A DNA stretch of 52,591 nt, from positions 1 to 52,591 of the forward strand of contig PEXU01000047.1 in assembly GCA_002774635.1 (NCBI GenBank), read 5' to 3'. Of this stretch, positions 3,165 through 50,590 are shown piece by piece. The notes beneath the pieces were generated by a model. It made no database searches. It saw nothing but the letters and a program-made list of their open reading frames with translations, and was not told the origin of the DNA. Numbering within the stretch: the stretch's first letter is position 1; every line of letters starts with the position of its first letter. This DNA is from Candidatus Kerfeldbacteria bacterium CG08_land_8_20_14_0_20_40_16 (lineage in GTDB: Bacteria; Patescibacteriota; Patescibacteriia; UM-FILTER-42-10). The position numbers and the translations under genes are program-made.

Positions 3165-3812
3165 TCATTCATAAAGCCAGAAATCATCACGGTCGATATG
3201 CCAGGCACTTAGCAGCTCGTCCGCCACCAAAGCAATGACATCTTTGTTCCAGTTAACTTGTTCGGCCCCCTCTCTTTCCAAAAGCACTGACCAAACAGGG
3301 CGCAAATCGTCATCTGATTGGTAAGCTTCGCATTTAGCGTAATATACTTTGTTTTCTTCTTGGTACAATGCTTTAAACAGCTCGGCGCATTTCAGTTTAA
3401 TGGAATTGAGATCCTCCAACACTTTAGTTTCATAATTGGTGGTGATTTCGTGTTCATCAGCCCAAAATCCCACCAGCGAAAAATACTCTTCCTGCTCGGA
3501 CATTCTTCGATCAGATTCGTTTTTAAAAAGATAAGGTTTGCCTTGGATATTATTGCCGGCCATTACCTCGCTGACGATTGATTTGATGTTAGCGATGCTT
3601 TCTTCCTTGTTTTCTAGTTCTTTCCCTGATTGGTTAGTTATTTCCTCAATAACCTTGGACTTTTCTTCGTAGTATTTTTCTTCCGCAGTTTTATTGCCTC
3701 CGCTCGCGTAATAAATAATCACAACGACGATTCCCGCCGCTATTATAGCCAAAACAGCAATTACTATAATTAATGTTTTTTTGGTGTTTTTCATAGGATT
3801 ATAATTAGTCAT
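3165..3812 (-). CDS. Single-pass membrane protein, function unknown. The start is probably at MTNYNP (3812), not at the upstream extension listed in the ORF track.
   Basis: N-terminal transmembrane helix (LIIVIAVLAIIAAGIVVVII) followed by a soluble acidic domain. The upstream in-frame extension runs into a GC-rich structured region. Confidence 0.45.
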   Translation of the reverse strand: MTNYNPMKNTKKTLIIVIAVLAIIAAGIVVVIIYYASGGNKTAEEKYYEEKSKVIEEITNQSGKELENKEESIANIKSIVSEVMAGNNIQGKPYLFKNESDRRMSEQEEYFSLVGFWADEHEITTNYETKVLEDLNSIKLKCAELFKALYQEENKVYYAKCEAYQSDDDLRPVWSVLLEREGAEQVNWNKDVIALVADELLSAWHIDRDDFWLYE

Positions 3813-3829
3813 TAAACTTGTTTTTATTT

Positions 3830-4015
3830 CGACTAGCGAGGAGCAAAATGAAAGCTTGCTATCATTTTGGCCGAGCGACGCCTGCCTCCGCCGAAGCGAA
3901 GCCTCGGCTTCGCGCAGGTAGGTCGAAACACAGGGTAAATACCCCGTGGCTTGCCGCTTTTCCATTCAATCCCGCGGACGCGGGATTGGGGTCCAGGGCT
4001 TGCTCTGGGGTCAAT
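3830..4015. other. GC-rich structured island in a divergent intergenic region: multiple hairpins, including the 16-nt palindrome TCCCGCGGACGCGGGA. Candidate ncRNA or GC-palindrome element.
   Basis: Sharp GC spike against AT-rich flanks. Stems include gaagcctcggcttc and cccgcggacgcggg. The same 16-mer recurs at 38606-38621. Confidence 0.4.
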
Positions 4016-4108
4016 ACCCTTTATTATAGTATTTAATCCATTTTCTGGGAATTAAATATTTTTAGCTTATTATGCTACTATTAACTGGTAAACATTAAAG
4101 GCAAAACT

Positions 4109-5470
4109 ATGAAATATTGTCCCAAATGCAATGCCCTTTTAAACAAAGAAGCCGAATTCTGCAGCGAATGCGGCACCAAAATCGAATCGGAGAACAAAAC
4201 TTCAGAACCCGCTCAAACTCCGATTACTCCAAAACAAAAAAGAAAAAAATCGAGCAACAGATTACTTTGGGTTATCATTATTATTTTTACCCTGGTCATT
4301 ATTGGTGCACTGATTGCTGCTTTTTTTGTTTTTCGGGAATCGGATGAGAAAAATTCCAATTCCGCTATTCCTTCCAATCAAAATTTAAACATGAATGTCA
4401 ATGAGAATACTAACGCCAATGTTAATCTTAATCAGAATGTAAACAGTGATGAGAATATGAATATAAATGATAATGGCAATATTAACATAAATCTAAATGA
4501 GAATAGCAATGAAAATACAAATGCGAATCTCAATGAAAATACTAACCAAGAGCAATTCACTCAAACCGATCCGGTAAATCCACTCCGGCCGCCGATCCCC
4601 GAAACCATTGTAACCGCTTCCTCCACCTTGGAAGACGCCAGCAATACCGGATTCGATTATTCCCCCTCTCAAGTTTTAGATCAGGATTTTTCCACGGCTT
4701 GGACCGAAGGAGTGAACGGTTACGGAGTGGGTGAGTGGATTAAAATGGAATTTCCAGGAACAGCCGAAATCAATACGATCGGAATCGTGCCAGGATACGC
4801 CCGCGATGAAGAAATCTACAACGAGAATGACCGAGTGGCGGATTTGGAACTGGAGTTTTCTGGCGGATCAAAAATAACCAGAACGCTTGCAGACCAATAC
4901 GGCATGCAGTTTATTGAATTTCCAACCGTTGGAACTACTTATATCAAATTAACAATTAAGGGAGTTTACGACGGATCAAAATACCAGGATGCCGCCATTG
5001 CTGAGCTTGATATCTGGTCCGACTATGTAACCAATAAAGATGCCCAAGCAGCCCTGGAATACTATCAAACTAATAAGGAATCGGCCGCTCTAAAGCCTCC
5101 TGTGAAATACATCGAGAAAACCTACATGGCCATCGGCATTATGGGCAGTCCTACTCCAGAAATTCCAGTTAATTTCTATTCTCCCACTGTGGAGCCGATG
5201 GTTGCTGCCGCAGAAATCCCCGCCGCCACTCCTCAAGGAATTACCTTTACCGCTAAGTGGTTCAATGAAGGCAACTTGTTCCATACCCAGGATATTACCA
5301 GTTATTCGCCGGTTGCCGAGATTGCTACCATTACTATTGTTTCCACCGCCCAGATTAGTGATTTAGTTTCTCCACCTGATGTTCTGTGGCCTCTGGGCGA
5401 TTATGATGTCAGATGGTATGAAGACGGCCAGCTTTCCACCACTCAAATTTTTGCCGTGACTCCGCAATAA
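4109..5470 (+). CDS. Membrane-anchored protein with, in order: N-terminal zinc-ribbon, transmembrane helix, (Asn-X)n low-complexity linker, discoidin (F5/8 type C)-like domain, and a C-terminal domain of unknown function
   Basis: CPKC...CSEC ribbon; hydrophobic helix; ~57-residue stretch with N at alternate positions (aatNNN DNA repeats 4376-4550); D..TAW and EW motifs typical of discoidin-like domains. Confidence 0.55.
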   Translation: MKYCPKCNALLNKEAEFCSECGTKIESENKTSEPAQTPITPKQKRKKSSNRLLWVIIIIFTLVIIGALIAAFFVFRESDEKNSNSAIPSNQNLNMNVNENTNANVNLNQNVNSDENMNINDNGNININLNENSNENTNANLNENTNQEQFTQTDPVNPLRPPIPETIVTASSTLEDASNTGFDYSPSQVLDQDFSTAWTEGVNGYGVGEWIKMEFPGTAEINTIGIVPGYARDEEIYNENDRVADLELEFSGGSKITRTLADQYGMQFIEFPTVGTTYIKLTIKGVYDGSKYQDAAIAELDIWSDYVTNKDAQAALEYYQTNKESAALKPPVKYIEKTYMAIGIMGSPTPEIPVNFYSPTVEPMVAAAEIPAATPQGITFTAKWFNEGNLFHTQDITSYSPVAEIATITIVSTAQISDLVSPPDVLWPLGDYDVRWYEDGQLSTTQIFAVTPQ

Positions 5471-10127: not shown

Positions 10128-10429
10128 CTTGTAGAAAATAGTGAGTTAGGTATAGGATGTTAGCTTGTAGGCGGGTAGAAAGAGAACGAAAAGCGAAAAA
10201 CGTAAAAGGCAAAATCACAGATGAAAATTAAAAATTGTATTATCAGTTAAACAAAGATAATAGAAAGTTAAAAATCATTTTTCGCTTTACATTGTAATTT
10301 TTCATTTTCAGTTTTTAATTTTTCACTAAAGTAATACTCGCTACAACCAAAAGCCAAAAAGCGATAAAAAACGGATGACTCATTAAAAAGCCGTTTTTTA
10401 TTTGACATCATTTATCAAACGTATTATCC

Positions 10430-12720: not shown

Positions 12721-14124
12721 ATGATTACTAAGACCGCCGAAATAGTTTCTGAACAATACAAATACGGCTTTGCCATGCCGGAAAAATACGTCTATAAATC
12801 TAAAAAAGGGCTTGATGAAAAGGTAATCCAAGAAATTTCTTGGAAGAAAAGCGAGCCGGCCTGGATGACCAAATTTCGTCTGCAAAGCTATCAGTACTTT
12901 AAGAAGAGAGCTTTACCAAAATGGGGAGGAGATCTGAAAAAAATCAACTTTGACAGCATTTATTACTACATTAAACCAACGGATCACCCGGCCAAAACCT
13001 GGGAGGAGCTGCCTTCAGAAATTAAGGAAACCTACGACAAAATTGGCGTTCCGGAAGCGGAAAAGAAATTTCTGGCGGGAGTAGGAGCGCAGTACGATTC
13101 AGAAATGGTTTACCATTCTCTAATCGAGAATCTGGAAAAACAGGGAATTATTTTTTTGGATACCGATTCCGCTTTGCAACAATACCCCGATTTAGTAAAG
13201 GAGTATTGGGGTACAATTGTTCCGTCCAATGATAACAAATTTGCTGCTCTCAACTCCGCAGTGTGGTCCGGAGGGTCGTTTATCTACGTGCCAAAAGGGG
13301 TAAGCGTGAAACTGCCTTTGCAGGCTTACTTCAGAATCAATGCGGCGCGGATGGGTCAGTTTGAACGCACTTTAATTATTGCGGAAGAGGGGAGCGACTT
13401 TCACTATTTAGAAGGATGTACTGCTCCGATTTATACCACCGATTCCCTGCACGCAGCCGTGGTAGAAGTGTTTATAAAAAAGGGAGCCCGAGTGCGCTAT
13501 ACCACCATCCAAAACTGGAGCAATAATGTCTATAATCTGGTAACCAAAAGAATGCGAATTGAAGCAGAAGGAATCGGAGAATGGATTGATTGCAATCTTG
13601 GTTCTAAGCTAACCATGAAATACCCCGCCTGCTATTTAATGGGCCCGGGCGCGCGCGGCGAGCTGCTTTCTATGGTTTATGCCGGATTAGGCCAGCACCA
13701 GGATGCCGGCGGCAAAATGATCCACATAGCGCCCCATACTTCTAGCAGAATAACTTCTAAGTCAATCAGCCAGAACGGGGGAAGAACATCTTATCGCGGG
13801 CTGATTCAAATAAATTCCAAGGCAGAAGAATCAAAATCCCGGGTGGTGTGTGATGCCTTAATTCTAGATGAAAAATCCCGGTCCGACACCTATCCTGATA
13901 TGAAAATCTATCAGCAAAATACCCAGGTGGAGCACGAAGCCACAGTCTCTAAAATAGGCGAGGAGCAGCTTTTTTACTTAATGAGCCGGGGTATTGACCA
14001 GATGACCGCCGAGACAATGATTATTAACGGATTCATTGAACCAATTGTAAAAGAACTACCGTTGGAATATGCGGTAGAAATGAACCGGCTGATCCAGCTA
14101 CAGATGGATAGAAGTATTGGTTAA
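12721..14124 (+). CDS. sufB: Fe-S cluster assembly scaffold SufB
   Basis: 467 aa with conserved SufB/SufD C-terminal beta-helix region. Confidence 0.9.
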
Positions 14125-14127
14125 TTT

Positions 14128-14232
14128 CATAATTTACAATTCTCAATTTTCAATGACTACTTTCTTAATTGTTTGAAAATTGAATCATTGAAAATTTATT
14201 GAAAATTGAAAATTGATAATTAAAAATTGCAT
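14128..14232. repeat. Copy of the dispersed AT-rich hairpin repeat (AATTTTCAAT / ATTGAAAATT family)
   Basis: Left arm caattctcaattttcaatg; right arm cattgaaaatttattgaaaattgaaaattgataatt. Confidence 0.7.
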
Positions 14233-14851
14233 TCTAATGACTAAAATAATAATTGATCAACTGAATAGAAAAAAGTCCAAGCGAACTTTGTCTGTTGGTA
14301 AAAGTGAGTCTTTAGTCTATTTATTACTGGGTTTACAGCCGGGCTCCAAAGAAGTCACGATAAATCTAAATGGCAAGGGGGCGACGGCCGAGATACTGGG
14401 ATTGTTTATCGGCCGGCAAGGAACAGGTCAGATCAAAACAATTCAGCGCCACTTGGCTCCTGACACTACCAGCGATTTGTTAATAAAAAGCGTTTTATTT
14501 GATGAGGCAAGCTATAATTACCACGGCATGATCCGGATCGACCGGTCCGCTCCGGGCGCCAATGCTTATCAAAGAAATGACAACTTATTACTAAGTGAAA
14601 AAGCGCTGGTTAACACTAGGCCGGAATTGGAGATTCTGGCCAACGATGTCCGTTGCACCCACGGGGCAACCACCGGCAGAATAAATGAGGCTAACCTGTT
14701 TTATCTTACCAGTAAAGGTATTGCCAAAAAGGAAGCGGAGCGTCTAATCGTGGAAGGGTTTTTGCAAGATGTTCTTGAGAGGATTCCTGACCAGAAAAAA
14801 AGAAATGAGCTAGCAAAACAATTAAAAAGGAAATTAAATCATGTTAATTAA
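14213..14851 (+). CDS. sufD: Short SufD-like Fe-S assembly protein
   Basis: SufBD-family C-terminal region; its position directly after sufB. Confidence 0.7.
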   Translation: MIIKNCILMTKIIIDQLNRKKSKRTLSVGKSESLVYLLLGLQPGSKEVTINLNGKGATAEILGLFIGRQGTGQIKTIQRHLAPDTTSDLLIKSVLFDEASYNYHGMIRIDRSAPGANAYQRNDNLLLSEKALVNTRPELEILANDVRCTHGATTGRINEANLFYLTSKGIAKKEAERLIVEGFLQDVLERIPDQKKRNELAKQLKRKLNHVN

Positions 14852-18922: not shown

Positions 18923-18958
18923 ATCAGTAGGCGAATTTGGCCAAATTCGCCTACTGAT
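18923..18958. repeat. Perfect 36-bp palindrome ATCAGTAGGCGAATTTGGCCAAATTCGCCTACTGAT (GTAGGCGAATTT family)
   Basis: Seen directly in the sequence. Confidence 0.75.
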
Positions 18959-19009: not shown

Positions 19010-19100
19010 ACCCTTTTTAAATTTCCAATTTCCAATTCTCAATTTTCAAATAAGTTCCAAATTCCAATGTTCCAAACATATTTATAATTTGGAATTTTAA
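19010..19100. repeat. Copy of the AT-rich AATTTCCAAT/AATTTTCAAT repeat family
   Basis: atttccaatttccaattctcaattttcaaat ... ttataatttggaatttt. Confidence 0.6.
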
Positions 19101-21255: not shown

Positions 21256-21455
21256 GTTTTACTCCCTTCTGTTTTTACTAACTGATTGGTGATTTTTTGA
21301 TTGTATTTGGTTGTAAAAGTTCAAATTTGTATTTAATAATACAAGTTTTATATCTTAGCATAAGGAAAAGGGGAATTCAAATCTTGACTTTGTTTCTGGT
21401 TATATGATAGTGTGAAATTACAGATAAATGGCGTTCTCGGACGTCTATTTTTTGT

Positions 21456-21500
21456 TTAATTCTCAATTATCAATTCTCAATTTACAATCAATTTTCAATG
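21456..21500. repeat. Left arm of the AT-rich hairpin repeat; it contributes the ATG of the four-helix-bundle gene
   Basis: aattctcaattatcaattctcaatttacaatcaattttcaATG. Confidence 0.65.
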
Positions 21501-21863
21501 AAACAATTTCCAAACAGGTATGATTTAGAAGATAGAACAGCTAATTTTGGCGCTGATATCATATTATTTTGTAAAAGAATTGTACAGGACGAAATCGCCA
21601 AACCCATTGTAAAACAGCTAATTCGTTCGGCAACAAGCATTGGAGCAAATTATATGGAAGCAAATGCCGCAAGTTCAAGAAAAGATTTTAGAAATAAGAT
21701 ATACATTTGCAAGAAAGAAGCTCAAGAAACAAAACATTGGCTGAGAATGATGTTGGTCTGTTTACCGGATAAGAAAGAAAAGATAAATAAACTACGTGGA
21801 GAATGTCAGGAATTAACGTTAATTTTTCAAAAAATAACCTCGTCATTGAAAATTAAAAATTAA
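21498..21863 (+). CDS. Four-helix-bundle protein (23S-rRNA-intervening-sequence protein family)
   Basis: Characteristic LIRSATSIGANYMEANAASSRKDFRNKIYICKKEAQETKHWL motif; both gene ends lie inside the repeat arms. Confidence 0.7.
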   Translation: MKQFPNRYDLEDRTANFGADIILFCKRIVQDEIAKPIVKQLIRSATSIGANYMEANAASSRKDFRNKIYICKKEAQETKHWLRMMLVCLPDKKEKINKLRGECQELTLIFQKITSSLKIKN

Positions 21864-21925
21864 ACATTCACTGAAAATTGATAATTGGAAATTGAAAATT
21901 TGTTTTTATTGTAAATTTGACAATT
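21845..21925. repeat. Right arm of the AT-rich hairpin repeat; it contributes the stop codon of the four-helix-bundle gene
   Basis: cattgaaaattaaaaattaaacattcactgaaaattgataattggaaattgaaaatt. Confidence 0.65.
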
Positions 21926-22158: not shown

Positions 22159-22186
22159 GTAGGCGAATTTCGCGAAATTCGCCTAC
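22159..22186. repeat. Palindrome GTAGGCGAATTTCGCGAAATTCGCCTAC (third copy of the GTAGGCGAATTT family)
   Basis: Seen directly in the sequence. Confidence 0.75.
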
Positions 22187-24285: not shown

Positions 24286-27189
24286 ATGCCCCAACAAACA
24301 CAAACACTTACCTCTTCCAAAATCGAAGAAGAAATCGAAATAAAAGATTCAGCCCCGGAAACAGATAAAAAAAGAGGTCTTTCTTTCCAGCGACTTTTTA
24401 CCTACGCCGAAACTCATCCTTTCGATGAAATCAAATGGGAAAAAAGAGATGCCGTAATCACCGACCCGAAAGGCAAAATAGTCTTTGAGCAAAAAGAAGT
24501 GGAAGTTCCTGATTTCTGGTCTCAGAACGCTACTAACATTGTGGCCTCGAAATATTTTTATGGCGATAAAGAAAAAAAAGAAAGAGAGTTCAGCGTCAAA
24601 CAACTGATTGACCGAGTCTCTCGAACCATAACCGACTGGGGCAAAAAAGATAATTATTTTGCATCCGAAGAAGATGCGGAAAATTTCTATAACGAATTAA
24701 CTTACCTTTTAGTAAATCAATACACGGCATTTAATAGCCCAGTCTGGTTTAACTGCGGGGTTGATCGTTATGATAGTGGTTCAGGAAAAGGACGCTATTA
24801 CTGGAACAAAGAACAGCAAAAAATATTAGTTGCCGAAGACGATTATACTCATCCCCAATGTTCGGCCTGTTTTATCAATTCGGTGGAAGATTCCATGGAT
24901 TCTATTTTAAATTTGGCCAAAACCGAGGGAATGTTGTTCAAATTCGGATCAGGAGCCGGTACCAACCTTTCTCCTATTCGGTCTTCTAAAGAGCATTTAA
25001 GCGGCGGCGGTCAATCCTCTGGCCCGGTGTCGTTTATGAAAGGATTTGATGCTTTTGCCGGGGTGATTAAATCGGGCGGCAAGACTCGCCGAGCGGCCAA
25101 AATGGTCATTTTAGATGTAAATCACCCGGATATAATGGAATTTATTGGATGTAAAGCCAATGAAGAAAAGAAAGCCTGGGCTCTAATTGATGCTGGTTAC
25201 GATGGTTCGATTGATGGAGAAGCTTATTCTTCGATTTTTTTCCAAAATGCCAACAATAGCGTTCGGGTAACGGATGAATTTATGGAAGCAACCCTGAATG
25301 ATGGTAAGTGGAAAACAAGGACAATTACCACTGGCAAAGTAATGGATACTTTTAATGCCCGTGACCTTTTGCGCAAAATCGCGGAAGCAACCCATATTTG
25401 TGGCGATCCCGGACTGCAGTTTGATACCGCGGTTAATGATTGGCATACCTGTTTGAATACCGATCGCATTTATGCCTCTAATCCTTGTAGCGAGTATATG
25501 TTCATCAATGATTCGGCCTGCAATCTGGTATCTTTAAATCTGACCAAGTTTTTGAATGATAATGGGGAGTTTGACGTTGCTTCTTTTAAGCATGCTGTGG
25601 ATGTAGTAATTACCGCTCAAGAGATAATCGTGGACCGCGCCAGTTATCCGACCCAGAAGATTGCTGAAAATAGCCATCTGTTCCGTGCCCTCGGGCTGGG
25701 ATACGCCAACTTGGGAGCGCTTCTGATGTATTTGGGCCTTCCTTATAATAGTGATAGGGGTAGAGCCTTGGCCGGTGTAATCACCGCCATTATGACCGCC
25801 GAAGCTTACAAACAATCTTCTATCATGGCCAAAGAAAAGGGGGTTTTTGATAAATATAATGAAAACAGAGAGCCCTTTTTAAGGGTGATTCGAAAACACC
25901 GGGATGCCACTAAAGAAATCAACGGCGATTTGACCATGCCTGGTCTAAAACAGGAGGCGGAAGAAATCTGGAACGAAGTTTTAGAACTAGGAAACGAGTA
26001 CGGCTTTCGAAATGCTCAAGTAACCTTGCTGGCTCCTACCGGTACCATCGGCTTTTTAATGGATTGTGATACTACCGGTATTGAGCCGGACATTGCTCTG
26101 GTAAAATACAAAAAATTGGTGGGAGGAGGCTACATGAAGATTGTGAATAATACTATCCCCATGGCGCTTAAACGGCTTGGCTACAACAATGATCAGGTCA
26201 AGGACATTATCGACTACATTGACAAAAACGATACGATCGAGGGAACGCCTTATCTTAAAGAAGAAGATCTGCCGGTATTTGATTGCGCTTTTCGTCCTTC
26301 CAACGGCGTCCGCTCCATTCACCATTTGGGGCATATTAAAATGATGTCGGCCGTTCAACCCTTTCTTTCTGGAGCCATTTCTAAAACGGTGAACATGCCC
26401 GAGAATTCAACGGTAGAAGATATTATGGATACCTATATCCAGGCTTGGAAGTTGGGCTTAAAAGCAATTGCCATTTATCGGGATAGTTCTAAACGAACTC
26501 AACCTTTAAACAATAAGAAAGAGGAAAAGGATGTCAAGAAAGAGGAGTTTAAAGTAATTCGTAACAAACTGCCGGACGAAAGACAGTCCATTACCCATAA
26601 GTTCGAAGTAGCCGGCCACGAAGGATACATTACGGTTGGTCTTTACGAAGATGGTCGCCCTGGCGAAATCTTTATTACCATGTCGAAAGACGGCAGCACC
26701 CTTTCTGGAATAATGGACGCCTTTGCCACTTCTATTTCCCTTAACCTGCAATATGGCGTTCCCCTGAAAGTGCTGGTTAATAAATTTACCCACACCCGCT
26801 TTGAACCGGCCGGCTTTACCAATAACAAGCAGATCCCGATGGCTAAGTCGATTATGGATTATATCTTTCGCTGGTTGGCAATAAAGTTTTTAAACCCCGA
26901 AGAAGTAGCGTTGGTTCATAACGCTTTATTGATTGGGGAAGACAAGAAGGAACTGAAGGAAGAGGTAAAAGAAAATAGCAAAATAAAGGAGGAAGAAAAA
27001 GATTCTCCTAATCCGGGCGAAGGTCAAGACCCGCTGCCCGCTTTTCAAATAAAGGTTGAGCAACAAGAATTGTTAACCTTTCAGAACCACGAAGATGCTC
27101 CGTTCTGCGAAGAATGCGGATCAATTATGATTCGCAACGGATCCTGCTACAAATGCCTGGAATGCGGCAGTACCAGCGGCTGCTCCTAG
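24286..27189 (+). CDS. nrdJ: Class II (adenosylcobalamin-dependent) ribonucleotide reductase NrdJ with a C-terminal zinc ribbon
   Basis: 967 aa monomeric-type RNR; active-site NPCSEY; C-terminal CEECG...CYKCLECG. Confidence 0.8.
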   Translation: MPQQTQTLTSSKIEEEIEIKDSAPETDKKRGLSFQRLFTYAETHPFDEIKWEKRDAVITDPKGKIVFEQKEVEVPDFWSQNATNIVASKYFYGDKEKKEREFSVKQLIDRVSRTITDWGKKDNYFASEEDAENFYNELTYLLVNQYTAFNSPVWFNCGVDRYDSGSGKGRYYWNKEQQKILVAEDDYTHPQCSACFINSVEDSMDSILNLAKTEGMLFKFGSGAGTNLSPIRSSKEHLSGGGQSSGPVSFMKGFDAFAGVIKSGGKTRRAAKMVILDVNHPDIMEFIGCKANEEKKAWALIDAGYDGSIDGEAYSSIFFQNANNSVRVTDEFMEATLNDGKWKTRTITTGKVMDTFNARDLLRKIAEATHICGDPGLQFDTAVNDWHTCLNTDRIYASNPCSEYMFINDSACNLVSLNLTKFLNDNGEFDVASFKHAVDVVITAQEIIVDRASYPTQKIAENSHLFRALGLGYANLGALLMYLGLPYNSDRGRALAGVITAIMTAEAYKQSSIMAKEKGVFDKYNENREPFLRVIRKHRDATKEINGDLTMPGLKQEAEEIWNEVLELGNEYGFRNAQVTLLAPTGTIGFLMDCDTTGIEPDIALVKYKKLVGGGYMKIVNNTIPMALKRLGYNNDQVKDIIDYIDKNDTIEGTPYLKEEDLPVFDCAFRPSNGVRSIHHLGHIKMMSAVQPFLSGAISKTVNMPENSTVEDIMDTYIQAWKLGLKAIAIYRDSSKRTQPLNNKKEEKDVKKEEFKVIRNKLPDERQSITHKFEVAGHEGYITVGLYEDGRPGEIFITMSKDGSTLSGIMDAFATSISLNLQYGVPLKVLVNKFTHTRFEPAGFTNNKQIPMAKSIMDYIFRWLAIKFLNPEEVALVHNALLIGEDKKELKEEVKENSKIKEEEKDSPNPGEGQDPLPAFQIKVEQQELLTFQNHEDAPFCEECGSIMIRNGSCYKCLECGSTSGCS

Positions 27190-27295
27190 TCTCAATTTTC
27201 AATTTTCAATTTACAATTTTCAAGTACGCCATTGAAAATTGAATCATTGAGAATTTAATGGAAATTGCAAAATTGATAATTGAAAATTATTGATT
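27190..27295. repeat. Copy of the AT-rich hairpin repeat (caattttcaattttcaatttacaattttcaag / cattgaaaattgaatcattgagaattt...aaattgataattgaaaatt)
   Basis: Inverted arms read directly from the sequence; shares the GAAAATTGATAATTG core with the other copies. Confidence 0.7.
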
Positions 27296-27846
27296 ATATT
27301 ATGTCCAGAAAAACAGAAAATAAAGGATTAGTAATCGTCTACACTGGCTCTGGCAAAGGCAAAACCACCGCGGCGATTGGAATGGCAGTGCGCGCGGCCG
27401 GTTATAATCAAAAATCAATCATTATTCAATTTATCAAAGGAACTTGGAAATCAGGGGAAGGGCAGAGTCTGAAAAAGCTTTATCCTCAAATAGAGATTAT
27501 TCCGGCCGGCAAGGGATTCGTAAAGATATTAAATGACCGCGAGCCTTTCAAAAATCATCTTCAAGCGGCTCAAGCGGCCTTAAAACTGGCTCGGCAGGCT
27601 GTCCGTTCCCATAAATATCAAATAGTGGTTCTGGATGAAATCAACTATGCGGTAAAAGGGAATTTGGTTTTAGTAAAAGATGTCTTAGATCTAATTAAAA
27701 TGAAGCTTCCCTCAATCCATTTAGTGCTGACCGGCAATTACGCTTCACCCCGCCTAATTCAAAAAGCCGATCTGGTGACAGAAATGAAAGAAATTAAACA
27801 TCCTTTCCAAAAAGGAATTAAGGCTCAAGAAGGAATCGATTATTAA
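27280..27846 (+). CDS. cobO: Cob(I)alamin adenosyltransferase (CobO/BtuR/CobA family); alternative start at 27301 (MSRK...)
   Basis: P-loop GSGKGKTTAA and family-typical length; sits adjacent to the B12-dependent RNR. Confidence 0.75.
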   Translation: MKIIDYIMSRKTENKGLVIVYTGSGKGKTTAAIGMAVRAAGYNQKSIIIQFIKGTWKSGEGQSLKKLYPQIEIIPAGKGFVKILNDREPFKNHLQAAQAALKLARQAVRSHKYQIVVLDEINYAVKGNLVLVKDVLDLIKMKLPSIHLVLTGNYASPRLIQKADLVTEMKEIKHPFQKGIKAQEGIDY

Positions 27847-27857
27847 GCGATTTGACA

Positions 27858-27887
27858 GCTCTAGTCAAGAAGTAATAGAATTAACTC
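27858..27887 (+). promoter_or_regulatory. Promoter TTGACA-18-TAGAAT driving the cobalamin riboswitch
   Basis: ttgacagctctagtcaagaagtaatagaat. Confidence 0.5.
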
Positions 27888-27899
27888 ACCTTAACAATT

Positions 27900-28140
27900 G
27901 AAAGTTTAATCAGAGAGAAAACAGGGAACACCGGTGGCTCCCTCGTCAGACGAGGGGGGAATCCGGGGCAGACCCGCTACTGTGAGTTCTGAACGAAGTG
28001 AAGAAATCACCTCGAGCTTAGTCGAGAGGTGATTATTCCCCAGCTCAGAATAAGCCAGAGAACTGAATCTCTCTTGAGAAAGTCTTCTTTACTTTCTTCG
28101 CGGATAGAGAAAGGAAGGGTCTAATTTTTGCCTTCCTTGA
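27900..28140 (+). ncRNA. Cobalamin (B12) riboswitch with terminator-type expression platform
   Basis: AGGGAACACCGGTG core, B12-box-like CCGCTACTG, AAGCCAGAGAACTG (cf. AGCCAGGAGACCTGCC), and a terminal hairpin ggaagg...ccttcc + ttttttt. Confidence 0.7.
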
Positions 28141-37818: not shown

Positions 37819-37943
37819 TATTTTTGCTCTAAAACAAAAATTCCCATAAAGGGATATAGTATTTCGGAAAGTTTGTTACTGGTACTAGGGGTGGGGATTG
37901 TCACCCCGTACCAAAAAATATTATTGCTAAACAGTAAAGTATG

Positions 37944-38019
37944 TGGTAGCGGGGGTGGGGATTGAACCCACGACCTTGGGCTTATGAGTCCCACGCTCTA
38001 CCAACTGAGCTACCCCGCC
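37944..38019 (-). tRNA. tRNA-Met (CAT), elongator-type, CCA encoded
   Basis: GGCGGGGTAGCTCAGTTGGTAGAGCGTGGGACTCATAAGCCCAAGGTCGTGGGTTCAATCCCCACCCCCGCTACCA folds as a canonical cloverleaf. Confidence 0.85.
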
Positions 38020-38074
38020 TTAAAGTAGTTTTGAGTATTATTGCTAATTTAATGTAATCTTATATTTTTGCTAC

Positions 38075-38240
38075 GGGGTGAAAGTCCCACGCTCTTCCTG
38101 GGTGCTTAAGGTCACCTTTGGTGACATCTCCGCACCCGTCTCGGCGCTCGCCAAGACAAGTAAGTTGTCTTGCTTTCCGCGCCTCGACCCAACTGAGCCC
38201 GTCCGCCTCGGCTACGCCGAAGGCGTGCCGGGCGGGCTAC
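38075..38240 (-). other. Degenerate tRNA-Met-like duplicate (acceptor 5' strand + D-arm + anticodon-stem 5' strand) interrupted in the D-loop by a ~95-nt GC-rich hairpin-rich insertion
   Basis: GGCGGACGGGCTCAGTTGG-[insertion with hairpins ggtcacc/ggtgacc and caagaca/tgtcttg]-AGAGCGTGGGACT matches the tRNA-Met 5' half. Confidence 0.5.
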
Positions 38241-38247
38241 CCTGGCT

Positions 38248-38323
38248 TGGTTGCGGGAGGGGGATTCGAACCCCCGACCTCCAGGTTATGAGCCTGACGA
38301 GCTGACCGCTGCTCTATCCCGCG
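38248..38323 (-). tRNA. Initiator tRNA-fMet (CAT); C1xA72 mismatch, A11:U24, CCA encoded
   Basis: CGCGGGATAGAGCAGCGGTCAGCTCGTCAGGCTCATAACCTGGAGGTCGGGGGTTCGAATCCCCCTCCCGCAACCA. Confidence 0.85.
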
Positions 38324-38573
38324 TCGTGTTGTCTTTTATAATTTTAAAGAATCCATCTCCTCCTTTTTGTTTTTTAAAGAATATTTCTCTTTTTCTTGCC
38401 TGGCTAAGTTTATCGAATTTTTCTGAATAAATCAATTTCCAGTTCTTAAATCGCTTTGTCCAGGTAGATAATCCCTCATTATGTTCTTTTAGCCTTCTTT
38501 GGATATCAGAAGTAGTCCCAATGTAATACCTCTTATTTTCGCTTTGAATTATATATACTATGTACTTTTTCAT
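38286..38573 (-). CDS. Small GIY-YIG nuclease domain protein; the ORF's 3' end reads into the tRNA-fMet 5' end, so the true C-terminus is likely shorter
   Basis: YIVYIIQSENKRYYIGTTSDIQRRLKEHN (GIY-YIG with the R/E/N catalytic trio). Confidence 0.65.
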   Translation of the reverse strand: MKKYIVYIIQSENKRYYIGTTSDIQRRLKEHNEGLSTWTKRFKNWKLIYSEKFDKLSQARKREIFFKKQKGGDGFFKIIKDNTTRDRAAVSSSGS

Positions 38574-38589
38574 CTTATCATCCAGTAAC

Positions 38590-38645
38590 TATGAGCCTGA
38601 CGAGCTGATCCCGCGTCCGCGGGACTCTATCCCGCGTCGAATGCT
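38590..38645 (-). other. Partial duplicate of the tRNA-fMet 5' half (acceptor strand through anticodon, ending after CTCATA) in which the D-loop CAGCGG is replaced by the 16-nt palindrome TCCCGCGGACGCGGGA
   Basis: The minus strand reads cgaCGCGGGATAGAG-TCCCGCGGACGCGGGA-TCAGCTCGTCAGGCTCATAg, compared with the intact gene 290 bp away. Confidence 0.6.
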
Positions 38646-38707
38646 TAAGTATCTTAACTTATAAAAAAAAATCTGACAAGACAGGTGGTAATAGTAAATA
38701 TAGTCTT

Positions 38708-38795
38708 TGGTGGGCAAGGAGAGAATCGAACTCTCATGAGCTTACGCTCATACGATTTTGAGTCGTACGCGTCTACCAATTCCGCCACTCGCCCC
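38708..38795 (-). tRNA. tRNA-Leu (CAA), long variable arm, CCA encoded
   Basis: GGGGCGAGTGGCGGAATTGGTAGACGCGTACGACTCAAAATCGTATGAGCGTAAGCTCATGAGAGTTCGATTCTCTCCTTGCCCACCA. Confidence 0.85.
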
Positions 38796-38957
38796 TTTAT
38801 TTAATGTGTATACTTTTTCCGTCGGATGAATGTAGGGTTTATTATACCCCAAACCTAGCTACTATTTAAGATTCCCTTTCGTTGTAAAATAAGTCTAGAA
38901 ATAAAATACTTAACTGTCAACATTTCAATGATGTAAAAAATCAGCAAATCTGGTATA

Positions 38958-49624: not shown

Positions 49625-49668
49625 CGAAAACAGGGCTTTCTTCTTGTTAGAACGCCCTGTTTTTTCTT
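49625..49668 (+). terminator. Rho-independent terminator
   Basis: aaaacagggctttcttcttgttagaacgccctgttttttc. Confidence 0.65.
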
Positions 49669-49770
49669 TATTCCAGTGTAACAGAGGAAGCAGTTTTTTT
49701 CAAGTTTGTGCGTATTAAGAAATTAGGAGTTGGCTTCTAAACCCTGTGCTATAAGCCAGATTAGAGCTCT

Positions 49771-49800
49771 TGACATCAGATTTTATTGTGCTAACATGGA
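49771..49800 (+). promoter_or_regulatory. Strong sigma70-like promoter TTGACA-16-TAACAT pointing into a 300-bp non-coding stretch and the tRNA-like cluster
   Basis: cttgacatcagattttattgtgctaacat. Confidence 0.45.
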
Positions 49801-50109
49801 AAACTCCTAAAAAGATACACTTTTACAATATTTAGCCATACTACTCAGGCAGCCGCTTACAAGCGGTGAAAGCTAGGCAACCCCTCCTACGCCAAAGCTG
49901 GTAGCCATCAAGTATAAGGTTTATCCCTTCTGGGTTGGACTTTATTGCTTGTAGGCGGCTCTTTGGGCAGTATTTCAACAAGTATCCGGAGTACTATTTA
50001 TAAGTCCCGGGAAAAGGAAGGATGTTGTGATCCTCCTTAAACAATGTCTCTTCCTCCCGCTTATAAATAGTATTCTGGATATTTTATAAATGGCTCTTTT
50101 GGGATAATA

Positions 50110-50217
50110 GCCCCCATAGCTCAATTGGTTAGAGCAGCGGCCTGAAAAGCTGTTAGCAGTGGTTCCCCGGCCGCCTGCTGACGCAGTCAGCGGGGCAGGC
50201 AATTCCACTTGGGGGCA
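50110..50217 (+). tRNA. tRNA-Phe(GAA)-like gene with perfect acceptor, D and anticodon arms but a 35-nt GC-rich hairpin insertion inside the T-loop (between 56 and 57); no CCA encoded
   Basis: GCCCCCA-TA-GCTCAATTGGTTAGAGC-A-GCGGC-CTGAAAA-GCTGT-TAGCA-AGTGG-TTC[CCCGGCCGCCTGCTGACGCAGTCAGCGGGGCAGGC]AATT-CCACT-TGGGGGC-A. Confidence 0.5.
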
Positions 50218-50590
50218 CGAAAAATCAGATTGCGGGCGTAGTCCCGACGTTCCGACAGTTATGTCGAAAGTCGGGATCCCGACTTCGCCTTTTGCGAACG
50301 TCGGGACTCAGTTGGTAGACCCGCCCGCCGCCGATGTAGCTCCCGCCGACGCTTTCGTTGCACTCAAGCTTTGGCGGGCGAGAGGTGTATATTGAATAAT
50401 CCACTCGCCCATCGTAACTTGGGTTAATACCCAAGCGTAGTTGGGCCAATGTAGCTAAGTCGGTAAAGCAACTCCGGTAAGGAGTAGGTCCGCGGTTCAA
50501 GTCCGCGCATCAGCTCCAGGCGGCTGGCGGGCGGGGCGTCTCTTGGTAAGAAGAGGGTCACTGGTTCGACTCCAGTCGTCCGCTCATAAT
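50218..50590 (+). other. GC-rich cluster of tRNA-like modules and nested palindromes. At 50232-50312 a nested-palindrome segment carrying D-loop-like TCAGTTGGTAGA; at 50440-50517 a tRNA-like element with canonical T-arm CGCGG-TTCAAGT-CCGCG, acceptor 3' strand and CCA; at 50531-50590 a 58-nt acceptor/T-arm minihelix (ACTGG-TTCGACT-CCAGT).
   Basis: Acceptor-stem complementarity (GCGGGCG/CGTCCGC with one G-U), T-loop consensus, D-loop-like TCAGTTGGTAGA, and perfect inverted repeats GTCCCGACG/CGTCGGGAC. Confidence 0.4.

Follow-up and report, generated by a model that had tools for sequence, protein, structure and literature searches.

The locus described here raises the question of whether a short, GC-rich and strongly folding stretch of DNA in an AT-rich spacer is an RNA gene or a piece of inserted DNA. 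It lies on contig PEXU01000047.1 of a groundwater bacterium of the Candidate Phyla Radiation (CPR), Candidatus Kerfeldbacteria bacterium CG08_land_8_20_14_0_20_40_16. The full 52,591-nt contig, which has an overall GC content of 0.42, was analysed and is referred to as the window. An initial annotation had described the stretch, termed the island, as a GC-rich block in an AT-rich divergent spacer, and had proposed that it belongs to one mobile or amplified family of GC-palindromic insertions or, alternatively, that it is a structured non-coding RNA (ncRNA). The evidence set out below points to an insertion. With about even confidence, the island is read as a composite insertion of GC-rich hairpins that is non-autonomous and has an analogue in the GC clusters of yeast mitochondrial genomes.

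An insertion in a divergent spacer

The composition of the island is as first described. In 100-nt windows the GC content is 0.60-0.62 over positions 3850-3999 and 0.26-0.27 on both sides, and the change at the island edges is sharp. The island is housed in a 311-nt spacer (3798-4108) between the divergent open reading frames (ORFs) 3797..3165 (-) and 4109..5470 (+).

The local gene order is kept in the nearest relative found in the protein database (L011; flanking protein 71% identity), which carries, in order, an EncFtn-like gene, adenylosuccinate lyase, a 209-aa gene, the NADase_transloc gene and genes of 68 and 285 aa. Its divergent spacer measures 125 nt, and the same divergent pair is found in L012, L013 and L166/L167 with spacers of 109-118 nt. 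The GC-rich block is absent from the spacers of all five of these syntenic relatives (109-125 nt, against 311 nt in the window).

The L011 spacer has the appearance of an empty site. The right flank of the island aligns to it from TTTATTATA (position 28 of the L011 spacer) onward, with a score that none of 1000 shuffles reached, while the left flank ends in TGTTTTTATT, which is found at positions 24-34. The two flanks overlap on the L011 spacer by the hexamer TTTATT, which is present there as a single copy and in the window on either side of the island. Taken together, the short spacers of the relatives, the empty site and the TTTATT repeats argue for an insertion and not for a conserved RNA gene. 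The simplest reading is that of a lineage-specific insertion of 191 bp (3829-4019) with a putative 6-bp target duplication, which would post-date the split from the L011 lineage. An apparent homology between the 3' part of the island and the L011 spacer in a MAFFT alignment (TTGGGGT-N9-GCTCTG) was rejected, as the local alignment scores of island and spacer do not rise significantly above those of shuffles (p = 0.2-0.29).

Within the species the island is present at 99-100% identity in ten contigs from several samples and is fixed in all sampled strains. Two single-nucleotide polymorphisms (SNPs) between strains fall inside it, G3922A and T3947C, and in strain contig L006 two of the three SNPs within 7 kb lie in these 191 nt. 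This enrichment suggests that the island is under weaker constraint than its mostly coding surroundings. G3922A removes the C3833-G3922 pair on the plus strand and would give a G.U pair on the minus strand; the site of T3947C is unpaired in either fold. Two SNPs are too few to decide between the strands.

Folding, transcription signals and the RNA gene question

Folded as RNA, the plus strand of the island has a minimum free energy (MFE) of -90.6 kcal/mol and a z-score of -4.69, with none of 200 shuffles as good, and the minus strand has an MFE of -87.4 kcal/mol (z -4.57). The predicted fold consists of two adjoining stem-closed modules, of about 102 nt and of 89 nt, built of small GC hairpins (Table 1). 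Near-equal folding of the two strands is what palindromic DNA would give.

Rfam was searched over the whole window at the gathering score, and over 3700-4150 and 37900-38850 at E <= 10. Over 3829-4019 no family was found at the gathering score and none at E < 0.01; the best sub-threshold match was BcKCsr2, scoring 19.5 bits (gathering score 40; E = 0.033). Outside the island these searches gave only tRNAs and a cobalamin riboswitch. A housekeeping RNA over the island, which the initial annotation had named as refuting its proposal, was thus not found, and a known housekeeping RNA is excluded. HEARO and related Rfam families gave no match at the island, and the adjoining ORFs encode neither a reverse transcriptase nor TnpB/IscB, as would be expected beside a retron msr-msd or an IS200/IS605 omega RNA. 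ARAGORN predicted four tRNAs elsewhere in the window and none in the island. Of the ncRNA alternative, the strong structure is retained, while a family match and conservation in relatives are not, and a conserved ncRNA is unlikely.

A newly acquired structured RNA, whether a plus-strand small RNA (sRNA) some 200 nt long or a 5' leader acting in cis on the minus-strand gene, is a separate matter. The very low z-scores on both strands are consistent with such an RNA, as is the fixation of the island in all ten strain contigs. Candidate sRNA signals are a TATAAT at 3807-3812 and a hairpin with a U-rich tail at 4007-4030 on the plus strand. The latter includes a weak terminator-like hairpin at 4007-4020 (+), with the tail TTATTATAGT, although no plus-strand gene ends upstream of it. 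A sigma-70-like promoter match on the minus strand, agreeing with the consensus at 10 of 12 positions, adjoins the island. The numbers of promoter and terminator matches are nevertheless within shuffle expectation. Moreover, the island is absent from every syntenic relative despite the conserved flanking genes and has no homologue in the collections searched; its SNP density is above that of its surroundings, with one SNP disrupting a plus-strand helix, and the equal folding of the strands is as compatible with palindromic DNA as with RNA. A recently gained RNA of this kind is therefore judged unlikely.

If the promoter at 4051-4023 is real, the island would form the 5' leader in transcripts of the minus-strand gene at 3797..3165. 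This gene has its ATG at 3797 and encodes a 210-aa membrane protein without a Pfam domain. Co-transcription as a structured leader of this gene is probable on the reading of the island as an insertion, and in that position it would be at most a passive stabiliser or insulator, not a dedicated RNA gene.

A shared 17-mer and a second module

The initial annotation had linked the island to a partial tRNA-fMet copy through a 16-mer, TCCCGCGGACGCGGGA. This recurs exactly, at 3970-3985 (+) and 38609-38624 (-), the second position having been given at first as 38606-38621, off by three; none of 100 shuffles gave any such match. The identity extends to 17 nt, TCCCGCGGACGCGGGAT, at 3970-3986 and 38608-38624 on opposite strands, with a BLAST E value of 0.003 for the window. 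As perfect GC-rich hairpins number only 19 in the whole window, two identical ones are unlikely to arise by chance, even if the null model takes hairpins into account. As first annotated, the second copy lies in the D-loop of a tRNA-fMet half-copy, where the 17-mer replaces CAGCGGT. The intact tRNA-fMet gene is at 38248-38323, and an ORF for a GIY-YIG nuclease lies between it and the displaced fragment. The 3' arm and loop of the hairpin, GACGCGGGAT, are identical to the tRNA-fMet gene at positions -2 to +8, a sign of common origin.

A second unit, GGGTNAATACCC, is found at both ends of the second island module (3933 and 4008) and again at 50421-50432, inside a 216-nt insertion in a tRNA-Thr gene. 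The corresponding pattern, GGTNAATACC, has four matches in the window where 0.30 are expected, and none of 100 shuffles reaches four. The fourth match is coding, in a gene read as sufB, and was counted as chance. GGGTNAATACCC is absent from 0.97 Mb of other loci.

Two further links, through the motifs gcctcggct and cgccgaag, do not hold. Both are present in 38195-38235 as described, yet at chance level: of 300 dinucleotide shuffles, 79 had as many 8-mers in common and 49 gave as high a score in local alignment of the island to this region. The proposal of one family is thus weakly supported: the 17-mer, GGGTNAATACCC and a common build, that of stem-closed GC-rich insertions in tRNA genes or fragments, speak for it, while two of the three sequence links originally named are attributable to chance. 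The best-supported relationship is one in which the island is kin to the hairpin insertions of tRNA genes and fragments by common units, and not by overall homology.

Beyond the window, the 17-mer is found in a further tRNA fragment. In an unrelated Patescibacteria metagenome-assembled genome (JBMORS01; L088, 2540-2625), a fragment copy of tRNA-Ser(GCU) running from D-loop to T-loop directly follows the intact gene, and the identical 17-mer stands in place of 8 nt of its anticodon stem. No GIY-YIG gene was found near this fragment. In a scan of a genome collection the 17-mer occurred in at least 117 unrelated genomes, among which chance matches in GC-rich genomes dominate, with AT-rich and Patescibacteria contigs also represented. 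In several AT-rich genomes the hairpin is flanked by A- and T-runs, like an ordinary bidirectional terminator. A 19-mer scan of metagenome contigs gave one further AT-rich example (L145).

Two of these contigs show additional structure around the 17-mer. In L071 (1005-1180) the 17-mer hairpin stands ahead of a 130-nt imperfect hairpin, the whole stretch having a z-score of -6.2, and in L145 (560-760) a long AT-rich palindrome has the 17-mer hairpin as its GC tip.

The wide occurrence of the 17-mer bears on another explanation, in which the island arose when foreign or filler DNA was captured on a single occasion by a staggered double-strand break. The island would then belong to no family, and the 17-mer would reflect convergence on a common stable hairpin. 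Such a capture would account for an island that is single-copy in all collections searched, and for a 17-mer that serves in several of the many genomes carrying it as a plain terminator hairpin. It would also accommodate a 28-nt, 96% match between island positions 3895-3922 and positions 7134-7161 of L134, a GC-rich viral contig, where they lie in a cluster of hairpins. The viral match, a 23-mer hit within a 28-nt GC hairpin, was rejected as homology and is regarded as convergence in a GC-rich genome. Capture with convergence fits poorly with the E value of 0.003 for the coincidence within the 52-kb window, where there are so few candidate hairpins, and with the second module, GGGTNAATACCC, common to the island and the tRNA-Thr insertion. 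The same 17-mer in the tRNA-Ser fragment of another Patescibacterium, and the equality of GACGCGGGAT with the start of the tRNA-fMet gene, likewise stand against it. A one-off capture is accordingly considered improbable.

tRNA insertions and GIY-YIG cassettes

The tRNA genes that share units or build with the island are themselves unusual. A tRNA-Phe(GAA) gene carries one GC-rich stem-closed insertion and a tRNA-Thr(GGU) gene carries two (Table 1), and these insertions are the reason why both genes were missed by ARAGORN and Rfam. Their deletion in silico yields canonical tRNA-Phe and tRNA-Thr cloverleaves. The 216-nt insertion in tRNA-Thr holds a weak 'tRNA-Tyr' call (50445-50518), its duplicated 5' fragment GCCGATGTAGCTC and a GGGTTAATACCC hairpin. 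A strain SNP, T50151C, converts a G.U to a G-C pair in the anticodon stem of tRNA-Phe, which hints that this gene is still under selection. No presence/absence polymorphism of the tRNA insertions was found among the strains.

Hairpin insertions are also found in displaced tRNA fragments. In three lineages a GIY-YIG ORF lies between an intact tRNA gene (fMet, Glu or Phe) and a displaced fragment of that same tRNA. The fragments carry a GC-rich hairpin insertion in the D- or T-loop, and the 3' end of the ORF overlaps tRNA sequence. In L153 and L155 a 5' fragment of tRNA-Glu with a 30-nt GC hairpin pair in its D-loop is followed by the ORF and the intact tRNA-Glu. In L154 an intact tRNA-Phe and the ORF are followed by a 3' fragment of tRNA-Phe, whose T-loop is split between positions 56 and 57 by a GC hairpin of 20 nt, at the site where the tRNA-Phe gene of the window is also interrupted. 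In other samples the contigs bearing the cassette of the window are mostly about 1 kb long, which suggests that the duplication within it breaks assemblies.

Given these interrupted tRNA genes, it might be supposed that the island is a decayed tRNA-derived sequence, either a tRNA gene or a tandem junction filled with hairpin insertions like the tRNA-Phe/tRNA-Thr pair at 50.1-50.6 kb. Its shared hairpin can be read as the 3' strand of the tRNA-fMet acceptor, GA, and then the acceptor 5' strand with U8. Island positions 9-70 also align weakly to tRNA-Phe (p ~0.007, uncorrected for 10 tests), which is unconvincing. Outside the 17-mer the similarity to tRNA-fMet is not significant (p = 0.13-0.57), and no tRNA model matches in the island region even at E <= 10. 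Rebuilding the island as a tRNA derivative was also attempted and rejected: ARAGORN found no tRNA in about 44,000 constructs from which one to three stem-closed segments had been deleted, while the tRNA-Phe and tRNA-Thr controls were recovered. An origin of the island as a whole by decay of tRNA genes is highly improbable.

Another structured island of high GC content, about 175 nt long and with a z-score of -4.8, lies on the minus strand at 38060-38250 and abuts the CCA end of tRNA-fMet. It starts like the 5' part of a tRNA with an insertion at 10/11 (GCCAGGGTAG[CCCGCCCGG...CGGACGGG]CTCAGTTGGGTCGAG). No tRNA could be rebuilt from it with up to three deletions, and it has no Rfam match. A further stretch of about 460 nt, 49640-50105, lies on the upstream side of tRNA-Phe; it contains inverted repeats at 49980-50004 and 50060-50084 and has neither a convincing ORF nor an Rfam match.

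In the literature on Patescibacteria tRNA genes no description of hairpin insertions in D- or T-arms was found, nor anything closer. The tRNA introns published for this group belong to group I and are located in the anticodon loop (PMC13011429).

Comparison with known elements

The closest analogy is with the GC clusters of yeast mitochondrial genomes. These are GC-rich hairpins in an AT-rich genome, with a putative target duplication and a 'dynamic merger and shuffling' of units, and their mobility has been proposed to need nucleases encoded elsewhere or an RNA intermediate (PMC4478555). The island resembles clusters such as GC42 in being a short, GC-rich, non-coding hairpin insertion in an AT-rich host, with a short putative duplication and composite units. 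The reported target dinucleotide of GC42 is AG, and several of the 17-mer copies described here are preceded by AG. In contrast, yeast GC clusters are 30-50 bp long and occur in many copies, whereas the island measures 191 bp and is single-copy in the collections searched. Its duplication is TTTATT and not AG, its host is a bacterium, and there is no sequence relationship.

Miniature inverted-repeat transposable elements (MITEs), REP/BIME, ERIC/IRU, Rickettsia palindromic elements and the repetitive hairpin elements of sponge mitochondria are, like the island, small, non-coding and intergenic, with hairpins on both strands. The target duplication flanking the island recalls MITEs. The only transposase in the window, that of the insertion sequence (IS) at 34-1041, has inverted repeats unrelated to the island. 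Unlike REP/BIME elements, the island has no GTAG or CGTC tag, and a search confined to the window found no RAYT or cognate transposase.

Free-standing GIY-YIG homing-endonuclease cassettes, such as the phage T4 seg genes and GIY-YIG insertions in fungal mitochondria, duplicate part of their host gene. The second 17-mer copy resembles these, in that an ORF lies in a partial tRNA duplication and an intact tRNA and a displaced fragment remain. To our knowledge, a GC hairpin in the D- or T-loop of the displaced fragments has not been described for those systems. The island itself, in contrast to them, has neither a GIY-YIG gene nor a tRNA fragment.

Other comparators are the non-canonical tRNA introns of archaea and the intervening sequences that RNase III excises from bacterial rRNA. 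Similar to these, the tRNA-Phe and tRNA-Thr insertions are stem-closed, at the D-stem, D-arm and T-loop, and their precise removal restores the tRNA. They differ from archaeal introns in their bacterial host, and on inspection no bulge-helix-bulge motif is evident in them.

Weighing the insertion as a possible mobile element

Several observations weigh against the island as a composite mobile element. No second copy, full or partial, was found in the 52.6-kb window (BLAST, repeat finders and a regular expression for the module ends), among the fetched loci (nhmmer), in viral contigs, or in phages and plasmids (blastn). A 20-mer scan of metagenome contigs also gave no match, in a collection that evidently lacks the source Joint Genome Institute (JGI) samples carrying the contig, and the spurious 72-aa ORF of the island matched only itself among 5.8 billion proteins. 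The repetition by which a mobile family is defined was thus not seen in the collections covered. Of the 'mobile or amplified' element first proposed there remains an insertion relative to all five syntenic relatives, marked by a 6-bp repeat at a site that is empty in the closest of them, and not a copy number. Presence/absence polymorphism, likewise, was not found among the ten strain contigs. The 6-bp TTTATT is AT-rich and perhaps partly coincidental, and is moderately convincing as a duplication. The island ends, TCGACTAGCG... and ...GGTCAATACCC, are not inverted repeats, as the ends of a MITE would be, and, unlike the tRNA insertions, the island lacks a single terminal stem that closes it. 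Finally, part of the recurrence of the 17-mer may be convergence on a stable hairpin. As terminal inverted repeats are lacking and copy number is not shown, membership of any defined family, be it MITE, REP or GC cluster, is not established.

Regardless, a composite hairpin insertion suggests a course of events. GC-rich non-coding hairpin DNA would have landed in the AT-rich spacer between divergent genes, and units of a loose class would be used repeatedly and fused with one another, as the recurrence of both the TCCCGCG-GA-CGCGGGAT and the GGGTNAATACCC hairpin suggests. The same loose class may also include the stem-closed GC-rich insertions seen in tRNA genes and tRNA fragments, both here and in other members of the Patescibacteria. 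One candidate for the means of mobility is a transposase or nuclease supplied in trans, as in the repair of breaks made by enzymes like the GIY-YIG proteins beside hairpin-bearing tRNA fragments. An alternative candidate is RNA-mediated copy-and-paste.

This reading can be extended further, although the extension is doubtful. The island, the 17-mer and the insertions in tRNA-Phe, tRNA-Thr and tRNA fragments could be products of one process, undescribed in Patescibacteria, in which GC hairpin units spread and merge, landing in AT-rich spacers and tRNA genes and sometimes accompanied by GIY-YIG cassettes. The interrupted tRNAs would then still work, their insertions being removed or tolerated at the RNA level.

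Other features of the window

The plus-strand neighbour of the island, at 4109-5470, encodes a Zn-ribbon/NADase_transloc protein. Near the left end of the contig, the IS-like unit at 34-1041 comprises a 320-aa ORF (34-996), with a weak match to Mutator-family transposases (PF00872), and flanking inverted repeats of 24 bp (34-57 and 1018-1041; 96% complementarity). The strain contigs L002 and L008 do not have this unit, and their synteny begins at the EncFtn gene. Two long, perfect palindromes at 18923-18958 and 22159-22186 share the form GTAGGCGAATTT(GG/CG)(CC/CG)AAATTCGCCTAC and start with GTAG, a feature of REP-type repeats, but bear no sequence relationship to the island. AT-rich repeats of TTGAAAATTGA and TCAATTTTCAA units, direct and inverted, are dispersed over several spacers, and a cobalamin riboswitch is found at 27886-28084 (+), with 38 bits against a gathering score of 31.5.

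Table 1. Coordinates of the island, its parts and related features. Positions refer to the window unless another contig is named.
Feature	Position	Strand	Description
Inserted island	3829..4019	none	191 bp, GC ~0.61, non-coding
Left direct repeat TTTATT	3823..3828		Putative target-site duplication; flank comparison with L011
Right direct repeat TTTATT	4020..4025		Flank comparison with L011
Module 1	3827..3928		Multi-branched, stem-closed; helix 3827-3834 / 3921-3928 (TTTCGACT / GGTCGAAA); two inner hairpins; from MFE
Module 1 hairpin CAAAATGA...TCATTTTG	3844..3869		Self inverted match and MFE
Module 1 hairpin GCGAAGCC/GGCTTCGC	3896..3913		Perfect GC hairpin
Module 2	3932..4020		89-nt imperfect palindrome (AGGGTAAATACCCC...GGGGTCAATACCCT), shared hairpin at tip; from MFE, both strands
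Hairpin CAATCCCGCGGACGCGGGATTG	3967..3988		10-bp stem, tip of module 2; includes shared 17-mer 3970-3986
GGGTAAATACCC	3933..3944	+	First copy of GGGTNAATACCC module
GGGTCAATACCC	4008..4019	+	Second copy of GGGTNAATACCC module; 3' end of island
Sigma-70-like promoter match	4023..4051	-	TTCCCA-17-TATAAT, 10/12; consensus match only, just outside island
AT-rich TTGAAAATTGA / TCAATTTTCAA repeats	10291-10337, 14118-14237, 19014-19072, 21452-21523, 21845-21909, 27188-27297		
GIY-YIG nuclease ORF	38286..38573	-	95 aa; Pfam PF01541, 1.2e-17
Displaced tRNA-fMet 5' fragment	38590..38639	-	-3 to +37; D-loop 17-mer at 38608-38624
GIY-YIG cassette, window	38248-38639		
GIY-YIG cassette, L153	2440-2830		
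GIY-YIG cassette, L155	310-651		
GIY-YIG cassette, L154	86-470		
tRNA-Phe(GAA)	50110-50217		35-nt GC-rich stem-closed insertion 50166-50200, T-loop between 56 and 57
tRNA-Thr(GGU)	~50232-50585		Two GC-rich stem-closed insertions
tRNA-Thr D-stem insertion	50242-50306		65 nt; TCCCGACG...CGTCGGGA
tRNA-Thr insertion after D-loop	50320-50535		216 nt; CCCGCCCGCC...GGCGGGCGGG

Implications

Taken alone, the island is a small and probably neutral insertion of modest interest, and the tRNA insertions and GIY-YIG cassettes merit more attention. It marks how structured GC-rich DNA enters the reduced, AT-rich genomes of CPR bacteria, and it serves as a caution that GC-rich islands with low folding z-scores in AT-rich genomes need to be checked at the orthologous site before they are called ncRNAs.

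The same hairpin modules sit within tRNA genes that standard tools miss. If the interrupted tRNA-Phe and tRNA-Thr genes are the only copies in this genome, the organism has to cope with the hairpin insertions of the D-arm and T-loop, either by processing or by tolerating them. Were this true, the way in which tRNA sets are called in CPR genomes would change, and an undescribed bacterial pathway of RNA processing or DNA mobility would be indicated. Should the island and the tRNA insertions prove to be products of one process, the latter would represent a new kind of bacterial tRNA intervening sequence.

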